A stretch of 52,741 nucleotides of DNA from Alphaproteobacteria bacterium (GCA_017436325.1 JAFSDI010000010.1:1-52741); one strand, 5' to 3'. Counted from the first letter of the stretch, positions 1 through 50,754 are shown. The notes: generated by a model not told the origin, from the sequence alone. A program made the numbers and translations.

Positions 1-93
1 AAATCCGCTTGATACGATTGATGCGTTTGCAGTGCCTGTGCCAACAATTCCCAATATCGTGCCGAATATGCCGGCGGTTAAGAGTCTTTTCAT
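1..93 (-). CDS. 5' fragment of secreted 'KIGTLP' family protein (copy A; runs off window start)
   Basis: Manual translation MKRLLTAGIFGTILGIVGTGTANASIVSSGF; signal-peptide-like; SIVSxGF matches the other three family members; AAAGGGG RBS-like site upstream. Confidence 0.8.
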   Translation of the reverse strand, partial: MKRLLTAGIFGTILGIVGTGTANASIVSSGF

Positions 94-126
94 TTTCGTT
101 GCCCCTTTGGTTCCGTGCGTTAAACT

Positions 127-383
127 AAAAAACCGCAATGAAAATCCAATGCGGTCGGGGAGTTCGTAAATCATAAACCTAATGACTCTGTCCGCCTTTG
201 GTGAAATTCACCTATTGTATAGCGGACAGCCCCCCGACATTTTCAGCCAGGGTTAACTAAGATTACGATGCAAATATGGAAATTATAAAATGGATTACGA
301 TACATATAATTATATGTTCGAATATATTTGCACCGAGGTTTATAGGCCTACGACAGCCCCGAACCGGATTCCCACCCAGTTCA
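127..383 (-). ncRNA. Conserved structured leader RNA, copy A, ending in an intrinsic terminator
   Basis: Shares GAACYRGRTGGGAATCYGGYTCGGGGCTGT, GTCGGGGRGC, TATACAAYAGG and AACTCCCCGACCGC-hairpin-T-tract with copies at 31609-31849 and 49831-50070; covarying helices. Confidence 0.75.
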
Positions 384-18468: not shown

Positions 18469-18555
18469 GCGGATATGGCGGAATTGGTAGACGCGCTAGT
18501 TTCAGGTACTAGTGGTAGCGATACCTTGGAAGTTCGAGTCTTCTTATCCGCACCA
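18469..18555 (+). tRNA. tRNA-Leu(CAG)
   Basis: Cloverleaf with long variable arm, CTAGT-ttCAGgt-ACTAG, encoded CCA. Confidence 0.95.
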
Positions 18556-18603
18556 GTTTTAAGACTTGTGTGTTTTCTTGCTGCGGGTCTTAGGGTGAGT
18601 TTT

Positions 18604-18679
18604 GGGGTTGTAGCTCAGCTGATAGAGCGCTACGTTCGCATCGTAGAGGTCGTGGGTTTGAGTCCCATCAGCTCCACCA
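18604..18679 (+). tRNA. tRNA-Ala(CGC)
   Basis: G3:U70 pair, CTACG-ttCGCat-CGTAG, CCA; T-loop TTTGAGT variant. Confidence 0.92.
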
Positions 18680-18700
18680 ATTTTTGTTGAGTAAGTCTTC

Positions 18701-18787
18701 GGGGATATGGCGGAATGGTAGACGCTGAGGACTTAAAATCCTTTGGTCATTGCGACCGTGTGGGTTCAAGTCCCACTATCCCCACCA
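18701..18787 (+). tRNA. tRNA-Leu(TAA)
   Basis: GAGGA-ctTAAaa-TCCTT, long variable arm, CCA. Confidence 0.95.
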
Positions 18788-18830
18788 CTTTTGTCGCCAA
18801 GTTCTTGGCGCTTTTTTGGTTATATAGTTT

Positions 18831-18907
18831 GGATGTGTAGCTCAGTTGGTTAGAGCGCTTCGTTCACATCGAAGAGGTCGTTGGTTCGAGTCCAATCACA
18901 TCCACCA
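18831..18907 (+). tRNA. tRNA-Val(CAC)
   Basis: CTTCG-ttCACat-CGAAG, GGTTCGAGTCC, CCA. Confidence 0.95.
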
Positions 18908-30815: not shown

Positions 30816-31586
30816 TTATTCTGTTTGTGTTTCAGTTGTTGTTCGGTCAATTATTTCCCAACGATATGTTGCTGTTTCACCTAATTTTTCCGCAGTTAAG
30901 ACATATTTACCGTTGCTGGATTCATTAAGTACATTTGGAATGGCTTGTTCGGCAAGTTGTTTTGCTGTGTCTGCTGTAATCTTTACTGCCGCCAAGGCAT
31001 CAGCCAAATTTGTATAACCGTCTGGGATTGTGCCGATTTTATCAATGCCGGCGCTTAATTGTGGTAATGTGTATATTTTTTCCCCTATACCCGTTGTTGC
31101 CCCGTGCGTAATTAGTAATTCATATAAGCTTGTTTCAGGGAATTCGTTAATAAAATCAGAAAAATAATTTGATATATCATAAAGACCCAAATTATCGTTC
31201 CAGCCAGCGAATAATCGTAATGTTATTCCTGCAACGCCTGGGAATTCAGTGTTAAAATAACTGTTGTATAAAAAATCATATATGTTGTTTATATCATTTG
31301 ACTGACCAGAAAAGAAGGGTGTACTAAGCCAGTCGTTTTCAAGTCTTCCAAATAAACGGTGTATTGTTCCCCTGCCCGCAACTTCGGCATATGTTGCGGT
31401 GGAATCAGGTGTGCCGATTTTGTTTGATAGTGTTGTTATGTCGCTTTGATTTGCTTTGGAATCTAATAAGTTTAATGTAGCGTAATTTGTCATCTGTTCA
31501 TCAAAAAATCCGCGGGATATAATTGATGCAGAGGCGACACTTGTGATTGTTAGCCAAATGATTGTACTGATTAAAATTTTGTTCAT
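30816..31586 (-). CDS. Secreted 'KIGTLP' family fibre-like protein (copy B)
   Basis: Signal peptide, SIISRGFFDE, KIGTIPDGY, GKYVLTA..ATYRWEIIDR. Confidence 0.8.
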   Translation of the reverse strand: MNKILISTIIWLTITSVASASIISRGFFDEQMTNYATLNLLDSKANQSDITTLSNKIGTPDSTATYAEVAGRGTIHRLFGRLENDWLSTPFFSGQSNDINNIYDFLYNSYFNTEFPGVAGITLRLFAGWNDNLGLYDISNYFSDFINEFPETSLYELLITHGATTGIGEKIYTLPQLSAGIDKIGTIPDGYTNLADALAAVKITADTAKQLAEQAIPNVLNESSNGKYVLTAEKLGETATYRWEIIDRTTTETQTE

Positions 31587-31608
31587 TTTTTTACTCCTTT
31601 CGATTAAT

Positions 31609-31849
31609 AAAAAAACCGCAATGAGAATTCATGCGGTCGGGGAGTTCACAAATCACCTAAAAGTCTGATTCCGCCAGCCTTCGGGAAACCCTGTTGTATA
31701 AACTGACGGCTCCCCGACCGGTGTGGCTAAGCGGGGAAAACAATAAAAGACGCTTTCGCGCCCCTTTGTCGCGGATTCAGTATCGTTTTGCGATACCGCT
31801 TTTAGGCAAGGCTTGTGACAGCCCCGAACCAGATTCCCATCCAGTTCAA
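31609..31849 (-). ncRNA. Conserved structured leader RNA, copy B
   Basis: Same conserved blocks and compensatory helices as copies A and C; ends CCGCATGA..TCATTGCGG-T7. Confidence 0.75.
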
Positions 31850-31854
31850 TCGGA

Positions 31855-31884
31855 ATTATACCATAAATATTGTATTTTTGTAAA
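31855..31884 (-). promoter_or_regulatory. sigma70-type promoter of leader RNA B
   Basis: TTTACA-18bp-TATAAT with extended TG. Confidence 0.7.
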
Positions 31885-31903
31885 TATAAAAATTGTTGAT
31901 TTG

Positions 31904-33184
31904 TTATATCGGCAGAATAATTCGAACGCAAAGTCCGCCAAGTTCGCTGTCTTCTAGGAACAGCTGGCCACCATGATTTTCAATCGCTGTTTTCGCAATC
32001 GATAACCCAAGACCCGTTCCCCCAGTTGATGTGCTGCGTGCTTCGTCAAGACGGATAAAAGGACGTAATGCATCTGGCTTTTTTTCATCAGGAATCCCAA
32101 TGCCGTCATCTTCGATTGTGATTTCGATGAAATCTGGTGTGTCTTTTTCAGTGATTTTTATGCGTTTGTTTGCATAGCGGGCCGCATTTTCAATAATATT
32201 GCCAAAGGCACGCGCAAGTGCCATAGGACGCGCATAAAACTGTGCGGGAATGTCTGGAAAATTTGTTATTATCTTCTTGTCTGGTGCCGCATCACGTGCA
32301 ATGCGAAGTAACATCGGTGGTAATTCTGTGGTTTGTTCTATTTCTGGGGCTTCGCCACGTGCAAAAGATAAATAACCGTTTACCATTTCTGTCATTCTGT
32401 CAATGTCTTGAATTAAATTATCGTTCGTTGCCGTGTTTGTTTCAATGGCCAGACGCATACGTGCAAGCGGTGATTTTAAATCGTGACTGACAGCATTTAA
32501 CATATCTGTACGGGTACGATTGTAGCGATCAAGTCGTTCTTTCATTTTTATCATAGATGTGGCTGCTTCGCGGATTTCTTTGGAACCGGTCGGTTCAAAC
32601 CCAGGTGCGTCAAGTCCGCGACCAAATCGATTCGCAGCGCGCGCAATACGGCGAATGCTGCGCGTGTGCAGGATGATGAATGGAGTGGCTAAAATTGATA
32701 CAATCAGTATTGAACCAATTAACCAGATTATAAATACTTCGGTGCTGGTTGAATAAATTCTGTATAATGATGTTCCAAATGTTGCTATCTTGTTGTCTTT
32801 GGTCGGTACGTCAATAAATACAAGACGTTTGCCTTTGTCTATATATATTTGTGCAGGACGTGATACACGCTTTGATAATTCTGATGCAAGTTTACCCGTT
32901 TCGCGTGATGAATTGTCGTTTTGGGTTGGGCGGTTTAATTTGTCGTTTATACTGATATTTATGCCAATGTCGCGCGCCATCTTTTGCGTTGTGGTAATAT
33001 CACCATCGTCAATAAAATTCATCATAGTGGTAATTTCACCCGCCAGTGTGCGTGCCAATGTATCATGCACACGTGACCAGTGATTGCCAAAAAATGCGTT
33101 CGCAACAATAACTTGCGCAATAATTAACGGTACAAGTATCATTAATATGGTTCTGGCGGAAAAACTGCGCGGTATAATTCTCAT
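31904..33184 (-). CDS. Sensor histidine kinase, EnvZ-like
   Basis: Two TMs, HAMP, VSHDLKSPL, NIIENAARY, DDGIGI, GTGLGL. Confidence 0.92.
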   Translation of the reverse strand: MRIIPRSFSARTILMILVPLIIAQVIVANAFFGNHWSRVHDTLARTLAGEITTMMNFIDDGDITTTQKMARDIGINISINDKLNRPTQNDNSSRETGKLASELSKRVSRPAQIYIDKGKRLVFIDVPTKDNKIATFGTSLYRIYSTSTEVFIIWLIGSILIVSILATPFIILHTRSIRRIARAANRFGRGLDAPGFEPTGSKEIREAATSMIKMKERLDRYNRTRTDMLNAVSHDLKSPLARMRLAIETNTATNDNLIQDIDRMTEMVNGYLSFARGEAPEIEQTTELPPMLLRIARDAAPDKKIITNFPDIPAQFYARPMALARAFGNIIENAARYANKRIKITEKDTPDFIEITIEDDGIGIPDEKKPDALRPFIRLDEARSTSTGGTGLGLSIAKTAIENHGGQLFLEDSELGGLCVRIILPI

Positions 33185-33200
33185 ACGATTTGCCTTTGGT

Positions 33201-33839
33201 TTATTGTTGGGTGCGATTCAATAGTTTATATCCCTGCCCCCGTATTGTTATGATATCAAGATTAGATGATACTAAATTTAATTTCATACGCAAGCGTTTT
33301 GCAACCATCGGTGTGGCAGATGCAATATTGCCAATTGGACTAATTAACTGAATTAATAGCTTTTTTTCTTCGCCAGATAAATTTAATAGTGTTTTTTCGT
33401 TTGCTTCATGCGAAACTGTGAAAAATTCATCATTTGTAAAAATAAGACCATCTGGTGGTATTGGTGCAGATGTTGGGTTATGCTTTATTATGTTGTTTAA
33501 TCTTAAAATAAGTTCACGAAATTGAAATGGCTTTGCTAAATAATCGTTCGCGCCATATGATAGACCAGCAATTGTATTTTCTGCACCAGTCATTGCGGTT
33601 AGCATAATAATTGGGGTTTGGTTGCCGTTGTTTCGTAGTTTTTGTAAAAATGATAAGCCATCCATACCCGACATCATTCTGTCAAGAATAATCGCGTTAA
33701 CTGATATGCGTGACAATATTTTTTCTGCTGATTCCGCAGATTCTGCAGATAGTGTATTAAATCCTTCGTTACGCAAACCTTTTGTTAATGTGTCGCGTAA
33801 AATATTGTCGTCATCAATAACTAATATTGTGTTGTTCAT
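33201..33839 (-). CDS. OmpR-family response regulator
   Basis: ILVIDDD, LDRMM, DYLAKPF, TIRGQGYKL. Confidence 0.9.
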   Translation of the reverse strand: MNNTILVIDDDNILRDTLTKGLRNEGFNTLSAESAESAEKILSRISVNAIILDRMMSGMDGLSFLQKLRNNGNQTPIIMLTAMTGAENTIAGLSYGANDYLAKPFQFRELILRLNNIIKHNPTSAPIPPDGLIFTNDEFFTVSHEANEKTLLNLSGEEKKLLIQLISPIGNIASATPMVAKRLRMKLNLVSSNLDIITIRGQGYKLLNRTQQ

Positions 33840-38635: not shown

Positions 38636-38679
38636 TAGTTGTATGTAAAAAAATACACGCGCCCGCAGGCGCGTGCAGC

Positions 38680-39004
38680 AGATACACATATAAGCCGGAT
38701 TCTGTTCTGCCACCAGCCCAGTATGTTTCGCATACCATTCTGTGGTAGTGGACATGATTAATCTGCAAATCTCATTACTGAGAAATGTCAAGCCTTCTAC
38801 CCGCCCCTAAACGTGGGACCCGTAAGTGGGGCCTATTTGAAGTTGCTGCACGCAGAGATTGCCCGTTTCACTCGAATTTAATCGTTTACGTCACTGTTGC
38901 TCTAATCGTCAGGTCGCCCTGCCCGGTATATTAGCCGGTGCGCCGTCCCATGCAGTCCGGACTTTCCTCTGGCTTTTTGAGGGCCAGCCATGTCCCGCGT
39001 ATCT
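38680..39004 (-). ncRNA. rnpB: RNase P RNA
   Basis: GAGGAAAGTCCGG and ACAGAATCCGGCTTAT universal motifs; P1 AGATACGCG/TGTGTATCT. Confidence 0.92.
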
Positions 39005-39157
39005 TACAGTGCACTATAATAGCATTTTTTTTATTCGTTTCAACACTTTTATTCTTTTTTTTATATTTGGTTAAGAAAATATGACTATTGCCCCTTGAAA
39101 AGTTTTTTTGCATAACTATATCGTAGGTAAATAATTTTTAACTTAGGAGTGAAAAAA

Positions 39158-46549: not shown

Positions 46550-46623
46550 TGGTGCGGGCGAAGGGAATCGAACCCTCGTCTTCAGCTTGGGAAGCTGACG
46601 TGCTGCCATTATACCACGCCCGC
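46550..46623 (-). tRNA. tRNA-Gly(CCC)
   Basis: GCGGGCG/CGCCCGC acceptor, TCAGC-ttCCCaa-GCTGA, GGTTCGATTCC, CCA. Confidence 0.95.
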
Positions 46624-49830: not shown

Positions 49831-50070
49831 TTGAACCAGATGGGAATCTGGCTCGGGGCTGTGGTGGCCCAGTACATCCGGTGCAAGTATATGTTATGTG
49901 TCGTAATCCGACGATTATTTCCTGTATTTGCACTGTATTTTTGTTAATCCCTGACTTGAAAGTCGGGGGGCTGACCGTTATACAACAGGTGTTTTCACCA
50001 AAGGCGGCAGAATCAACGATGTACTGATTACCAACTCCCCGACCGCTTATGATTTCCATAGCGGTTTTTT
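49831..50070 (+). ncRNA. Conserved structured leader RNA, copy C
   Basis: GAACCAGAT-GGGA-ATCTGGCTC hairpin; conserved blocks; terminator CCGCTTATG..CATAGCGG-T6. Confidence 0.75.
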
Positions 50071-50094
50071 AACACTAAAAAAAGAGGGATTTTT

Positions 50095-50754
50095 ATGAAT
50101 AAATATTTACTTGGGGTTCTTATGGGGTTGGGCACAATCGGCACAACATACGCATCAATTGTTTCGCGTGGTTTCTTGGACGAGGCCCTAACCAGTTACG
50201 CCACCACCACAGCACTGGATTTAAAAGCAGATAAGGCAGATTTGATGACGGTATCAGACACAATAGAAGAATGGAACAAAATTGCTAATATAGGTGAAGG
50301 ACTCGATTTTTGTAGCGGCATGAACTTGGATGCTATAGTAGTTAATGGCGAGACGATTTTCGGTAGCTGTTACGATACATATGATGTTAGCGATTTAATT
50401 AAGCGTTTTGTTCCATATCAGGCTCAATATGAGGGAAATTGGTTTATTCAATTATTAGAATTATCGACAAAGGGTTATACAAAAGGAATCGATCAAATAA
50501 AAGGTTTGGAAACTTTAACATCAGACATTGAAGATTTGAACATCAAAATCGGAACTTTGCCGGCTGGTTATGAAACTGTTGGTGATGCGCTGACCGCCAT
50601 TAATGCCAAGGTTGATAACAAGATTGAAAATCTGTCTGAAACCGCCAGTGCTGGAAAATATGTCTTAACCGCGGTTAAGGTTGGTGACCAGACAACCTAT
50701 GCCTGGGAATTGATTGACCGCAGTGAAAGCGAAACCACAACAACAAGCGAATAG
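50095..50754 (+). CDS. Secreted 'KIGTLP' family fibre-like protein (copy C)
   Basis: Signal peptide, SIVSRGFLDE, KIGTLPAGY, GKYVLTA..TTYAWELIDR. Confidence 0.8.
   Translation: MNKYLLGVLMGLGTIGTTYASIVSRGFLDEALTSYATTTALDLKADKADLMTVSDTIEEWNKIANIGEGLDFCSGMNLDAIVVNGETIFGSCYDTYDVSDLIKRFVPYQAQYEGNWFIQLLELSTKGYTKGIDQIKGLETLTSDIEDLNIKIGTLPAGYETVGDALTAINAKVDNKIENLSETASAGKYVLTAVKVGDQTTYAWELIDRSESETTTTSE

Follow-up and report, generated by a model that had tools for sequence, protein, structure and literature searches.

In classical attenuators and in the expression platforms of ON-type riboswitches, a helix that shares nucleotides of the terminator stem acts as its competitor and is itself restrained by an upstream strand. 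In intrinsic terminators, the base of the stem, beside the U-run, is the part that matters most. With regard to phage antisense RNAs, the c4 RNA of P1 pairs at the RBS region of icd/ant. The passages of Hershko-Shalev 2016 (PMC4825925) dealing with related RNAs describe the isrK leader, which adopts alternative folds and whose short terminated form acts in trans on the read-through form, and the CI RNA of P4, which pairs with seqA upstream and with seqC downstream, resulting in termination. Finally, the excerpts describing sRNA-Xcc1 (RF02221) present it as a small RNA carried by integron cassettes in Xanthomonas campestris, with further annotations in islands of Xylella and in APSE phages, and as a trans-acting sRNA, unlike the leader described here.

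This leader lies in a window of 52,741 nucleotides, which is the whole stretch of DNA analysed. It exhibits the same four-strand logic as classical attenuators, with a competing helix that shares terminator nucleotides and is held by an upstream strand. In contrast to classical attenuators, it is without a leader peptide, tRNA-binding or identified ligand, and its anti-antiterminator is a long-range, pseudoknotted and locus-specific double helix. As in the P4 CI, P1/P7 c4 and Gifsy-1 IsrK leaders, the recognition sequences of the module are complementary to an upstream site of the same transcript. The phage antisense leaders also resemble it in their alternative folds, in an outcome tied to termination or read-through at the end of the small RNA, and in recognition sequences that vary between related elements. 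Unlike c4 and P4 CI, the leader is without a second complementary site downstream (32 copies, 130 nt after the terminator), and, unlike the phage leaders, it is found outside a prophage and is multiplied before cellular surface-protein genes. Judging from its sequence, the element is a leader of the terminator/antiterminator type, with an sRNA-Xcc1-like junction at its core and an addressing that resembles that of phages.

Layout of the leader and comparison with sRNA-Xcc1

The window contains three copies of the leader (A, B and C). Copy B, the site of the finding, is read from the minus strand; it is flanked by a histidine-kinase gene (31904-33184) and by a 256-aa ORF (30816-31586), and promoter, leader, terminator, RBS and ATG follow one another in the 5' to 3' direction. 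Its features, and the positions of the two other copies, are as follows.

126..383, minus strand: copy A, the same leader, with an ORF that continues beyond the end of the window
31855..31884, minus strand: sigma-70-type promoter of the leader (TTTACA, 18 nt, TATAAT), with TG ahead of the second hexamer
31826..31847, minus strand: Pa, the hairpin at the leader's 5' end, with 9 bp and a GGGA tetraloop
31821..31827, minus strand: G1 (UCGGGGC), the 5' G-strand, which pairs with C2 as helix P1a
31812..31818, minus strand: 5' strand of P1b, including a variable 'address' box of 4 nt, which is CACA in copy B
31799..31806, minus strand: 5' strand of PK (CCTAAAAG), a variable box forming a pseudoknot with the H2 loop
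31739..31798, minus strand: variable mid-domain; in B-type copies (n=3) a hairpin and a terminator-like hairpin (31745-31766), then TTTTATTGTTTT
31732..31738, minus strand: C1, UUCCCCG in copy B and CCCUGAC in most copies, holding G2 in a local hairpin (anti-antiterminator)
31710..31720, minus strand: G2 (CGGUCGGGGAG), the internal G-strand, with C1 or C2 as alternate partners
31671..31709, minus strand: H1, a stem that covaries and contains an inner hairpin as well as internal loops of conserved sequence, UAUACAACAGG / GAAGG
31652..31669, minus strand: H2 hairpin, whose loop (31656-31663, CTTTTAGG) is the 3' strand of PK
31646..31652, minus strand: 3' strand of P1b (UUUGUGA)
31634..31644, minus strand: C2 (CUCCCCGACCG), the contested strand, overlapping the 5' foot of the terminator
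31609..31637, minus strand: intrinsic terminator, with a 6-bp ACCGCA / UGCGGU stem (31615-31637) and a U-run (31609-31614)
30816..31600, minus strand: RBS AAAGGAG (31594-31600) and the 256-aa ORF, with its ATG at 31584-31586
49831..50071, plus strand: copy C, the same leader, ahead of a 219-aa paralogue (50095-50754)

The leader of copy B starts near 31848 and is ~245 nt long. Its promoter matches at 11 of 12 positions and is the sole promoter-like site within 31450-32000; copies A and C exhibit the same promoter arrangement upstream of the leader. A separate promoter for the downstream gene, which the earlier note had named as an observation that would speak against its reading, is absent from this interval. 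Since the only promoter-like site in 31450-32000 precedes the leader, the downstream gene appears to depend on read-through. As in expression platforms, a hairpin with a U-run stands directly before the ORF, with no promoter between them. The predicted fold of leader B has an energy of -99.2 kcal/mol (z = -5.5 against shuffled sequence); the terminator hairpin (-9.6 kcal/mol) is part of this minimum-energy fold, and U-runs are present in the 32 aligned copies of the genome. Two ORFs that overlap leader B, one of 92 aa (31653-31931, minus strand) and one of 87 aa (31694-31957, plus strand), were taken as spurious because of the many indels between copies and the covariation of the paired columns.

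It had been claimed that an invariant CTCCCCGAC immediately precedes and overlaps the terminator, and this is borne out on the minus strand (C2 CTCCCCGACCG, 31634-31644; terminator, 31615-31637). The motif occurs at four sites in the window (0.04 expected; four were reached in none of 100 shuffles), i.e., at 154-162 on the minus strand in copy A, at 31636-31644 on the minus strand in copy B, at 50035-50043 on the plus strand in copy C, and at 31710-31718 on the plus strand. This fourth site is the exact complement of the internal GTCGGGGAG of copy B.

With regard to Rfam, no family reaches its gathering score on the leader, and sRNA-Xcc1 is the only one matched consistently. Copy B scores 30.9 bits (E 0.002); among 20 further copies, 14 score between 25.5 and 39.5 bits and six give no match at E<=1, and the gathering score of this family (53 bits) is reached by no copy scored. 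The isrK family (RF01394), whose gathering score is 50, matched only the mid-domain of copy B (31743-31812), with 16.7 bits, and gave no match in the 20 others at E<=1. The leader and sRNA-Xcc1 have in common a G:C-rich closing helix (GGUCGGGGAG / CUCCCCGACC in the leader, GgCcGGggGG / CccCCgGcC in the consensus) and a three-way junction, which comprises a closing helix of ~9 bp, a first hairpin with an AUACAA...GAA internal loop, to which H1 of the leader aligns, and a second hairpin. In contrast to the free-standing cassette gene, the junction of the leader is the 3' half of a ~245-nt RNA present in ~48 chromosomal copies, and the leader adds to it a 5' strand, two long-range helices and a hairpin that sequesters G2, as well as an overlapping terminator that stands immediately ahead of an ORF.

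Several other elements are found around the leader. The histidine kinase (HAMP, HisKA, HATPase_c) and a response regulator occupy 31904-33839 on the minus strand, directly upstream of leader B and on the same strand, and a weak terminator-like hairpin (31923-31937) lies between these genes and the leader promoter. Elsewhere in the window are an RNase P RNA of class A (38675-39005, minus strand, 159.5 bits), a cluster of four tRNA genes (18469-18904, plus strand) and a further tRNA gene (46553-46623, minus strand).

Covariation of the alternative pairings

We consider it likely that the stretch corresponds to the 3' domain, with the expression platform, of a two-fold leader that gates the terminator before a secreted-protein gene, a reading supported by comparative data. 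The leader would be transcribed from its own promoter and would end in the intrinsic terminator, ~20-50 nt before the gene. In one fold, hereafter fold Y, G1:C2 and C1:G2 would form and be locked by the long-range, locus-specific P1b and PK, leaving the terminator free to stop transcription. In the other, fold X, G2:C2 would close the three-way junction (H1, H2) and consume 2-5 nt of the terminator foot, and the polymerase would then read on into the gene. The leader would flip when something occupies the 5' strand or stabilises the junction. Our leading guess for the trigger is RNA-RNA recognition via the locus-specific boxes, as in the phage c4, P4 CI and IsrK leaders; a protein or a ligand bound to the junction is our second guess. 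The succession of promoter, leader, terminator, RBS and ATG recurs in 32 full copies, and all called downstream ORFs begin shortly after the terminator.

The pairings on which the earlier note had built its proposal are present. C2 can pair with the 5' GGGG (G1, 31821-31827) and with the internal GUCGGGGRG (G2); in copy B, the latter helix reaches 11 bp (CGGTCGGGGAG:CTCCCCGACCG, 31710-31720 with 31634-31644) and takes 4 nt of the terminator stem. The local hairpin that holds the internal strand is found in all three copies, as CCCTGGC/GTCGGGG in A, CCCTGACT/AGTCGGGG in C and TTCCCCG/CGGGGAG in B.

Over the 32 copies of the window's genome, 96.2% of the cells of fold Y are paired and both-side changes are observed at 27 of 61 pairs, whereas sliding the partners left 33-44% paired; the real value was reached by none of 500 shuffles. 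Both-side changes affect 5 of the 9 pairs of Pa (98.3% paired) and 4 of the 7 pairs of P1b, a 7-bp helix between the variable box after G1 and the tail before C2 (columns 33-39 with 264-270), which is 100% paired. They affect all six pairs of PK, a pseudoknot between a 6-8-nt variable box and the H2 loop, with up to four pair types per column, as well as 6 of the 12 pairs of M1, the closing helix of the variable mid-domain, and 5 of the 7 pairs of H1. The nearly invariant H2 exhibits none at its three pairs. In the terminator (99.5% paired), one of the six pairs shows both-side changes, and the closing pair occurs as four pair types. G1, C1:G2 and C2 are invariant, and the contested helices (G1:C2, C1:G2, G1:C1 and G2:C2) exhibit no variation within this genome; as all four strands are invariant there, they carry no covariation information at this level.

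In other families of the order, these strands do vary. They were compared on a model-made alignment of 65 distinct rows, in which no pairs were imposed on the contested strands (A4), and on a plain MAFFT alignment of 50 rows (A6). G2:C2 is 94.8% paired on A4, with both-side changes at 5 of 10 pairs, and 94.9% paired on A6, with both-side changes at 6 of 9 pairs and none of 500 shuffles as high. One of its pairs on A4 occurs as GC in 37 rows, UG in 9, AU in 4, GU in 1 and UA in 1, with 13 mismatches. Among 166 distinct relatives, pair 197-275 is GC in 122, UG in 11, AU in 8, UA in 5 and GU in 2, with 16 mismatches, and pair 199-272 is GC in 154, UA in 7, AU in 1 and GU in 1. The relatives' loci compared are the best matches among more than 1,000 in the order.

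C1:G2 also exhibits both-side changes on A4 (CG 38, AU 5 and UA 1 at one pair; GC 20 and AU 9 at another). Its two parts are 82% and 71% paired, the lower level being due to the alignment of this region by sequence only. Compensated variants can be recognised by eye, such as ACCUGGC with GUCGGGU in locus L091, and a broader script found the hairpin in 160 of 166 real and 112 of 166 shuffled relatives, this shuffling being a weak control. On A4, covariation is seen at all six pairs of the terminator and both-side changes at all seven pairs of H1. On A6, pairing reaches 71.7% for G1:C2 and 84.5% for P1b, and both-side changes are seen at 3 of 6 and 6 of 7 pairs, respectively. The terminator/antiterminator/anti-antiterminator logic proposed earlier fits these comparative data, in which G2:C2, C1:G2 and the terminator all covary.

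The three strands that meet in the proposed switch can be followed together. The combinations below come from 50 of 64 distinct rows, the filter being a PK site located 9-20 nt to the 3' side of the P1 site; their G1 partners were picked by a duplex search that leans to pairing, so that the counts from A6 (71.7%) are the more sober ones.

C2 UCCCG, with G1 CGGGA and G2 CGGGA
C2 CCCAG, with G1 UGGG and G2 CUGGG
C2 ACCCG, with G1 GGGU and G2 CGGGU
C2 UCCUG, with G1 CAGGA and G2 CGGGA
C2 CUCCG, with G1 CGGAG and G2 CGGGG
C2 GCCCG, with G1 CGGGC and G2 UGGGU or UGGGG, the latter giving a G.G mismatch

At one position, G2:C2 has exceptions, namely G.G in 9 of 50 rows and G.A in 2 of 50. A broader script for G1 partners kept 26 of 166 rows, with poor loop definition, and its G1 table was set aside. 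We read the combinations above as selection acting on both pairings of C2 and on both pairings of G2: both folds would be under selection, since changes in C2 are matched in G1 and in G2, and changes in G2 are matched in C1. As expected for an expression platform, the alternative helix shares terminator nucleotides, and both alternatives are kept by compensatory change.

P1b and PK sites are also found in other families; in most rows, the PK site follows the P1 site at a distance of 11-18 nt. Other families (e.g., L148, L153 and L173) exhibit UAGUAUC...GAUAC instead of GAACUGG...CUGGUUC as Pa, and a shorter or different mid-domain; they keep only the order of the strands, i.e., G1, P1b, PK, ..., C1, G2, H1, H2, C2 and terminator.

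Calculated energetics of the proposed terminator invasion

G2:C2 extends by 2-5 nt into the 5' foot of the terminator, next to the U-run, in the 32 copies. The energy predicted for the remaining hairpin depends on the depth of the invasion, as follows.

0 nt invaded (full hairpin): -9.9 kcal/mol, mean of 32 copies
2 nt invaded: 16 of 32 copies, including A and C; remaining hairpin -5.9 kcal/mol
3 nt invaded: 7 of 32 copies; remaining hairpin -4.6 kcal/mol
4 nt invaded: 8 of 32 copies, including B; remaining hairpin -0.5 kcal/mol
5 nt invaded: 1 of 32 copies; remaining hairpin 0 kcal/mol

The caution that had been expressed about copies A and C was fair, as the 2 nt invaded there bring the hairpin from about -9.5 to about -5.9 kcal/mol, i.e., it is weakened and not lost.

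When the whole leader is folded, the lowest energy belongs to fold Y in 26 of the 32 copies; the minimum-energy folds contain G1:C2 in 32 of 32 copies and G2:C2 in none. Forcing G2:C2 costs 13.8 +/- 3.5 kcal/mol in the whole leader and 9.4 +/- 2.8 kcal/mol before the 3' strand of the terminator exists, in calculations that ignore the pseudoknot PK. Given this cost of 9-14 kcal/mol in the whole leader, fold X would need a strong helper or a kinetic route, and the default state predicted by these models is probably termination (OFF). The 5' strand had already been put forward as a partner of C2. The pairing stands, but its weight was understated, since G1, P1b and PK together are the dominant competitor, with the same tilt of 9-14 kcal/mol. 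The energy models suggest a role of master anti-antiterminator for the 5' strand (G1, P1b, PK); they also suggest that the gene would be switched on by anything that occupies this strand or clamps the junction.

The dominance of fold Y in these calculations would also be expected of a static RNA, one that always adopts fold Y, terminates and constitutes a stable small RNA of ~240 nt, the gene receiving leaky read-through only; the G2:C2 complementarity would then reflect an intermediate of folding or be left over from an ancestor resembling sRNA-Xcc1. One metatranscriptome run (5% of sampled words, contigs only) contains leader-like contigs of 192-305 nt from related copies, including one of 227 nt that covers 31631-31847, from the promoter-proximal end to the terminator, which would suit such a small RNA. 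The ends of these contigs, however, fall at repeat borders and imply no RNA ends, so the contigs were not used as support. We nevertheless consider a static RNA unlikely: G2:C2 is kept through both-side changes across families, which argues for selection on this pairing, its overlap with the terminator foot is conserved, and about 48 genes per genome would have to rest on leakage alone.

In the 3' half of the leader without the 5' strand, folds X and Y differ by ~1.4 kcal/mol on average. The 3' half of copy B prefers fold X, with a probability of 0.73 for G2:C2 and 0.28 for the terminator, the former value being inflated by the different register of its C1. Near-isoenergetic folds of this kind could also be exhibited by a metabolite or ion riboswitch, in which the three-way junction (G2:C2, H1, H2 and UAUACAACAGG) would be an aptamer, and the ligand would stabilise P1 and prevent termination. 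Such a riboswitch would be consistent with the ON-type architecture, in which the 3' strand of P1 is common to the terminator, and with the high conservation of the internal loops (entropy of 0.32 bits). It is disfavoured by the spread of the downstream gene types, which are secreted, lipoprotein-like or unrelated rather than members of one pathway, with no Pfam family, and hypervariable, locus-specific paired boxes are not a feature of riboswitches. Moreover, we know of no metabolite riboswitch with ~48 copies in a 1-Mb genome, which also counts against this explanation. A metabolite or ion riboswitch thus appears quite improbable to us, more so than a static RNA.

Distribution, downstream genes and locus-specific boxes

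The genome to which the window belongs (1.04 Mb, 42 contigs) contains 37 exact CTCCCCGAC sites, and 32 full, non-identical copies of the leader were extracted from it. A covariance model of the 3' domain gave 48 matches in this genome; as only H1, H2 and the terminator are paired in this model, with no pairs on the contested strands, it is neutral with regard to the latter. The model has matches in 60 of the 61 genomes of the genus and in 139 of the 151 genomes of the order, belonging to 17 of its 22 genera. In one genome of another genus of the same family (G159), 49 matches were found at E<=0.001, as many as in the window's genome, and many members of the genus exhibit fewer than 10 matches; the number of copies thus differs greatly from one lineage to another. 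Many copies lie within a few hundred bases of contig ends (C3, C13, C17, C18, C21, C22, C23, C29 and C32; 1-385 in the window). The assembly is probably interrupted by the repetition of the leader and of the paralogues that follow it, so that the genome may in reality contain more than 48 copies.

Named public records were scanned at the level of contigs with a 14-nt pattern, which gives mostly chance matches in high-GC genomes; the element was confirmed in 3 of 80 loci, namely two MAGs of Candidatus Enterousia sp. and one 'Rickettsiales bacterium'. Passages of a paper on Enterousia (PMC12306168) place it in order Rs-D84, with genomes below about 1 Mb, and propose a partner-dependent life. No paper joining Rs-D84 with riboswitches, structured RNA, ncRNA or leader RNA was found among the listings searched, and none of the Enterousia papers deals with RNA, judging by the titles. 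The leader family is thus undescribed as far as Rfam and the literature searched (listings and passages only) are concerned.

With regard to the genes behind the leaders, no Pfam family was found in the product of the 256-aa ORF, which exhibits a signal-peptide-like N-terminus and the motif ASIISRGFFDE. This protein has 19 homologues among 5.8 billion proteins, none of them named. Among the downstream ORFs of the genome, most either encode paralogues in which ASI(V/I)S(R/S)GF(F/L)(D/E)E comes after a signal peptide, or are members of two other groups of exported proteins. Paralogous exported proteins in the window are encoded at 30816-31586 (minus strand), 50095-50754 (plus strand) and 1-92 (minus strand). 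The paralogues with ASI(V/I)S(R/S)GF(F/L)(D/E)E, which match no Pfam family, form a putative clade-restricted surface-protein family. In relatives, 81 of 135 called N-termini are signal-peptide-like by a crude rule, 11 of these with a lipobox, and the others look cytoplasmic. No single ligand pathway or transporter is apparent among the downstream genes, which are secreted or lipoprotein-like together with assorted others.

The paired boxes of P1b and PK are the most variable part of the leader, with 1.5 bits per column, as in unconstrained flanks. Combinations of the P1b box (4 nt) and the PK box (6 nt) are all distinct in the 32 copies (loci L031-L062), and pairs of copies that are at least 90% identical elsewhere never have both boxes in common. 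The P1b boxes number only about 10, and several of the PK boxes reappear in other combinations, a pattern reminiscent of module shuffling.

Antisense-like boxes that do pair with upstream sites would also be compatible with a translational repressor of the c4 type, in which the junction loop and the tail would pair with copies of the boxes at the downstream RBS. Nevertheless, no second 7-nt box was found in the 130 nt after the terminator of the 32 copies, where the best score was 4.97/7 for a copy's own box vs 4.82/7 for the boxes of other copies. In addition, Rfam C4 (RF01695) gave no match at E up to 10 and none in the 20 other copies at E<=1. A repressor of this type is hardly plausible, and we retain the reading of the leader as a switch that gates its terminator. 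A bolder extension of this reading is that each leader is a private RNA 'address', and that terminated or processed leaders act in trans on their own locus only, which would yield independent, self-addressed bistable switches; we regard this extension as doubtful.

The B-type leaders (B, L038 and L042) exhibit, in place of the usual mid-domain, a hairpin and a second terminator-like hairpin, AAGGGGCGCGAAAGCGTCTTTT, followed by ATTGTTTT. Located upstream of the junction, this second hairpin could terminate transcription before the presumed switch has been transcribed.

The ~48 copies of this 250-nt leader represent roughly 1% of the genome and mostly stand before exported-protein genes. The three-way covariation is a rare comparative signature of two alternative folds, and the locus-specific paired boxes connect cellular gene control with the logic by which phages achieve antisense immunity. 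Should the leader prove to be a switch, it would constitute a large undescribed family of cis-regulatory RNAs, found in 139 of the 151 genomes searched, and, among the known controls of the cell surface in these uncultured gut bacteria, it would be the main one. If the leaders were indeed self-addressed, they would provide RNA-based variation of the surface coat in a reduced-genome gut symbiont, without DNA rearrangement.
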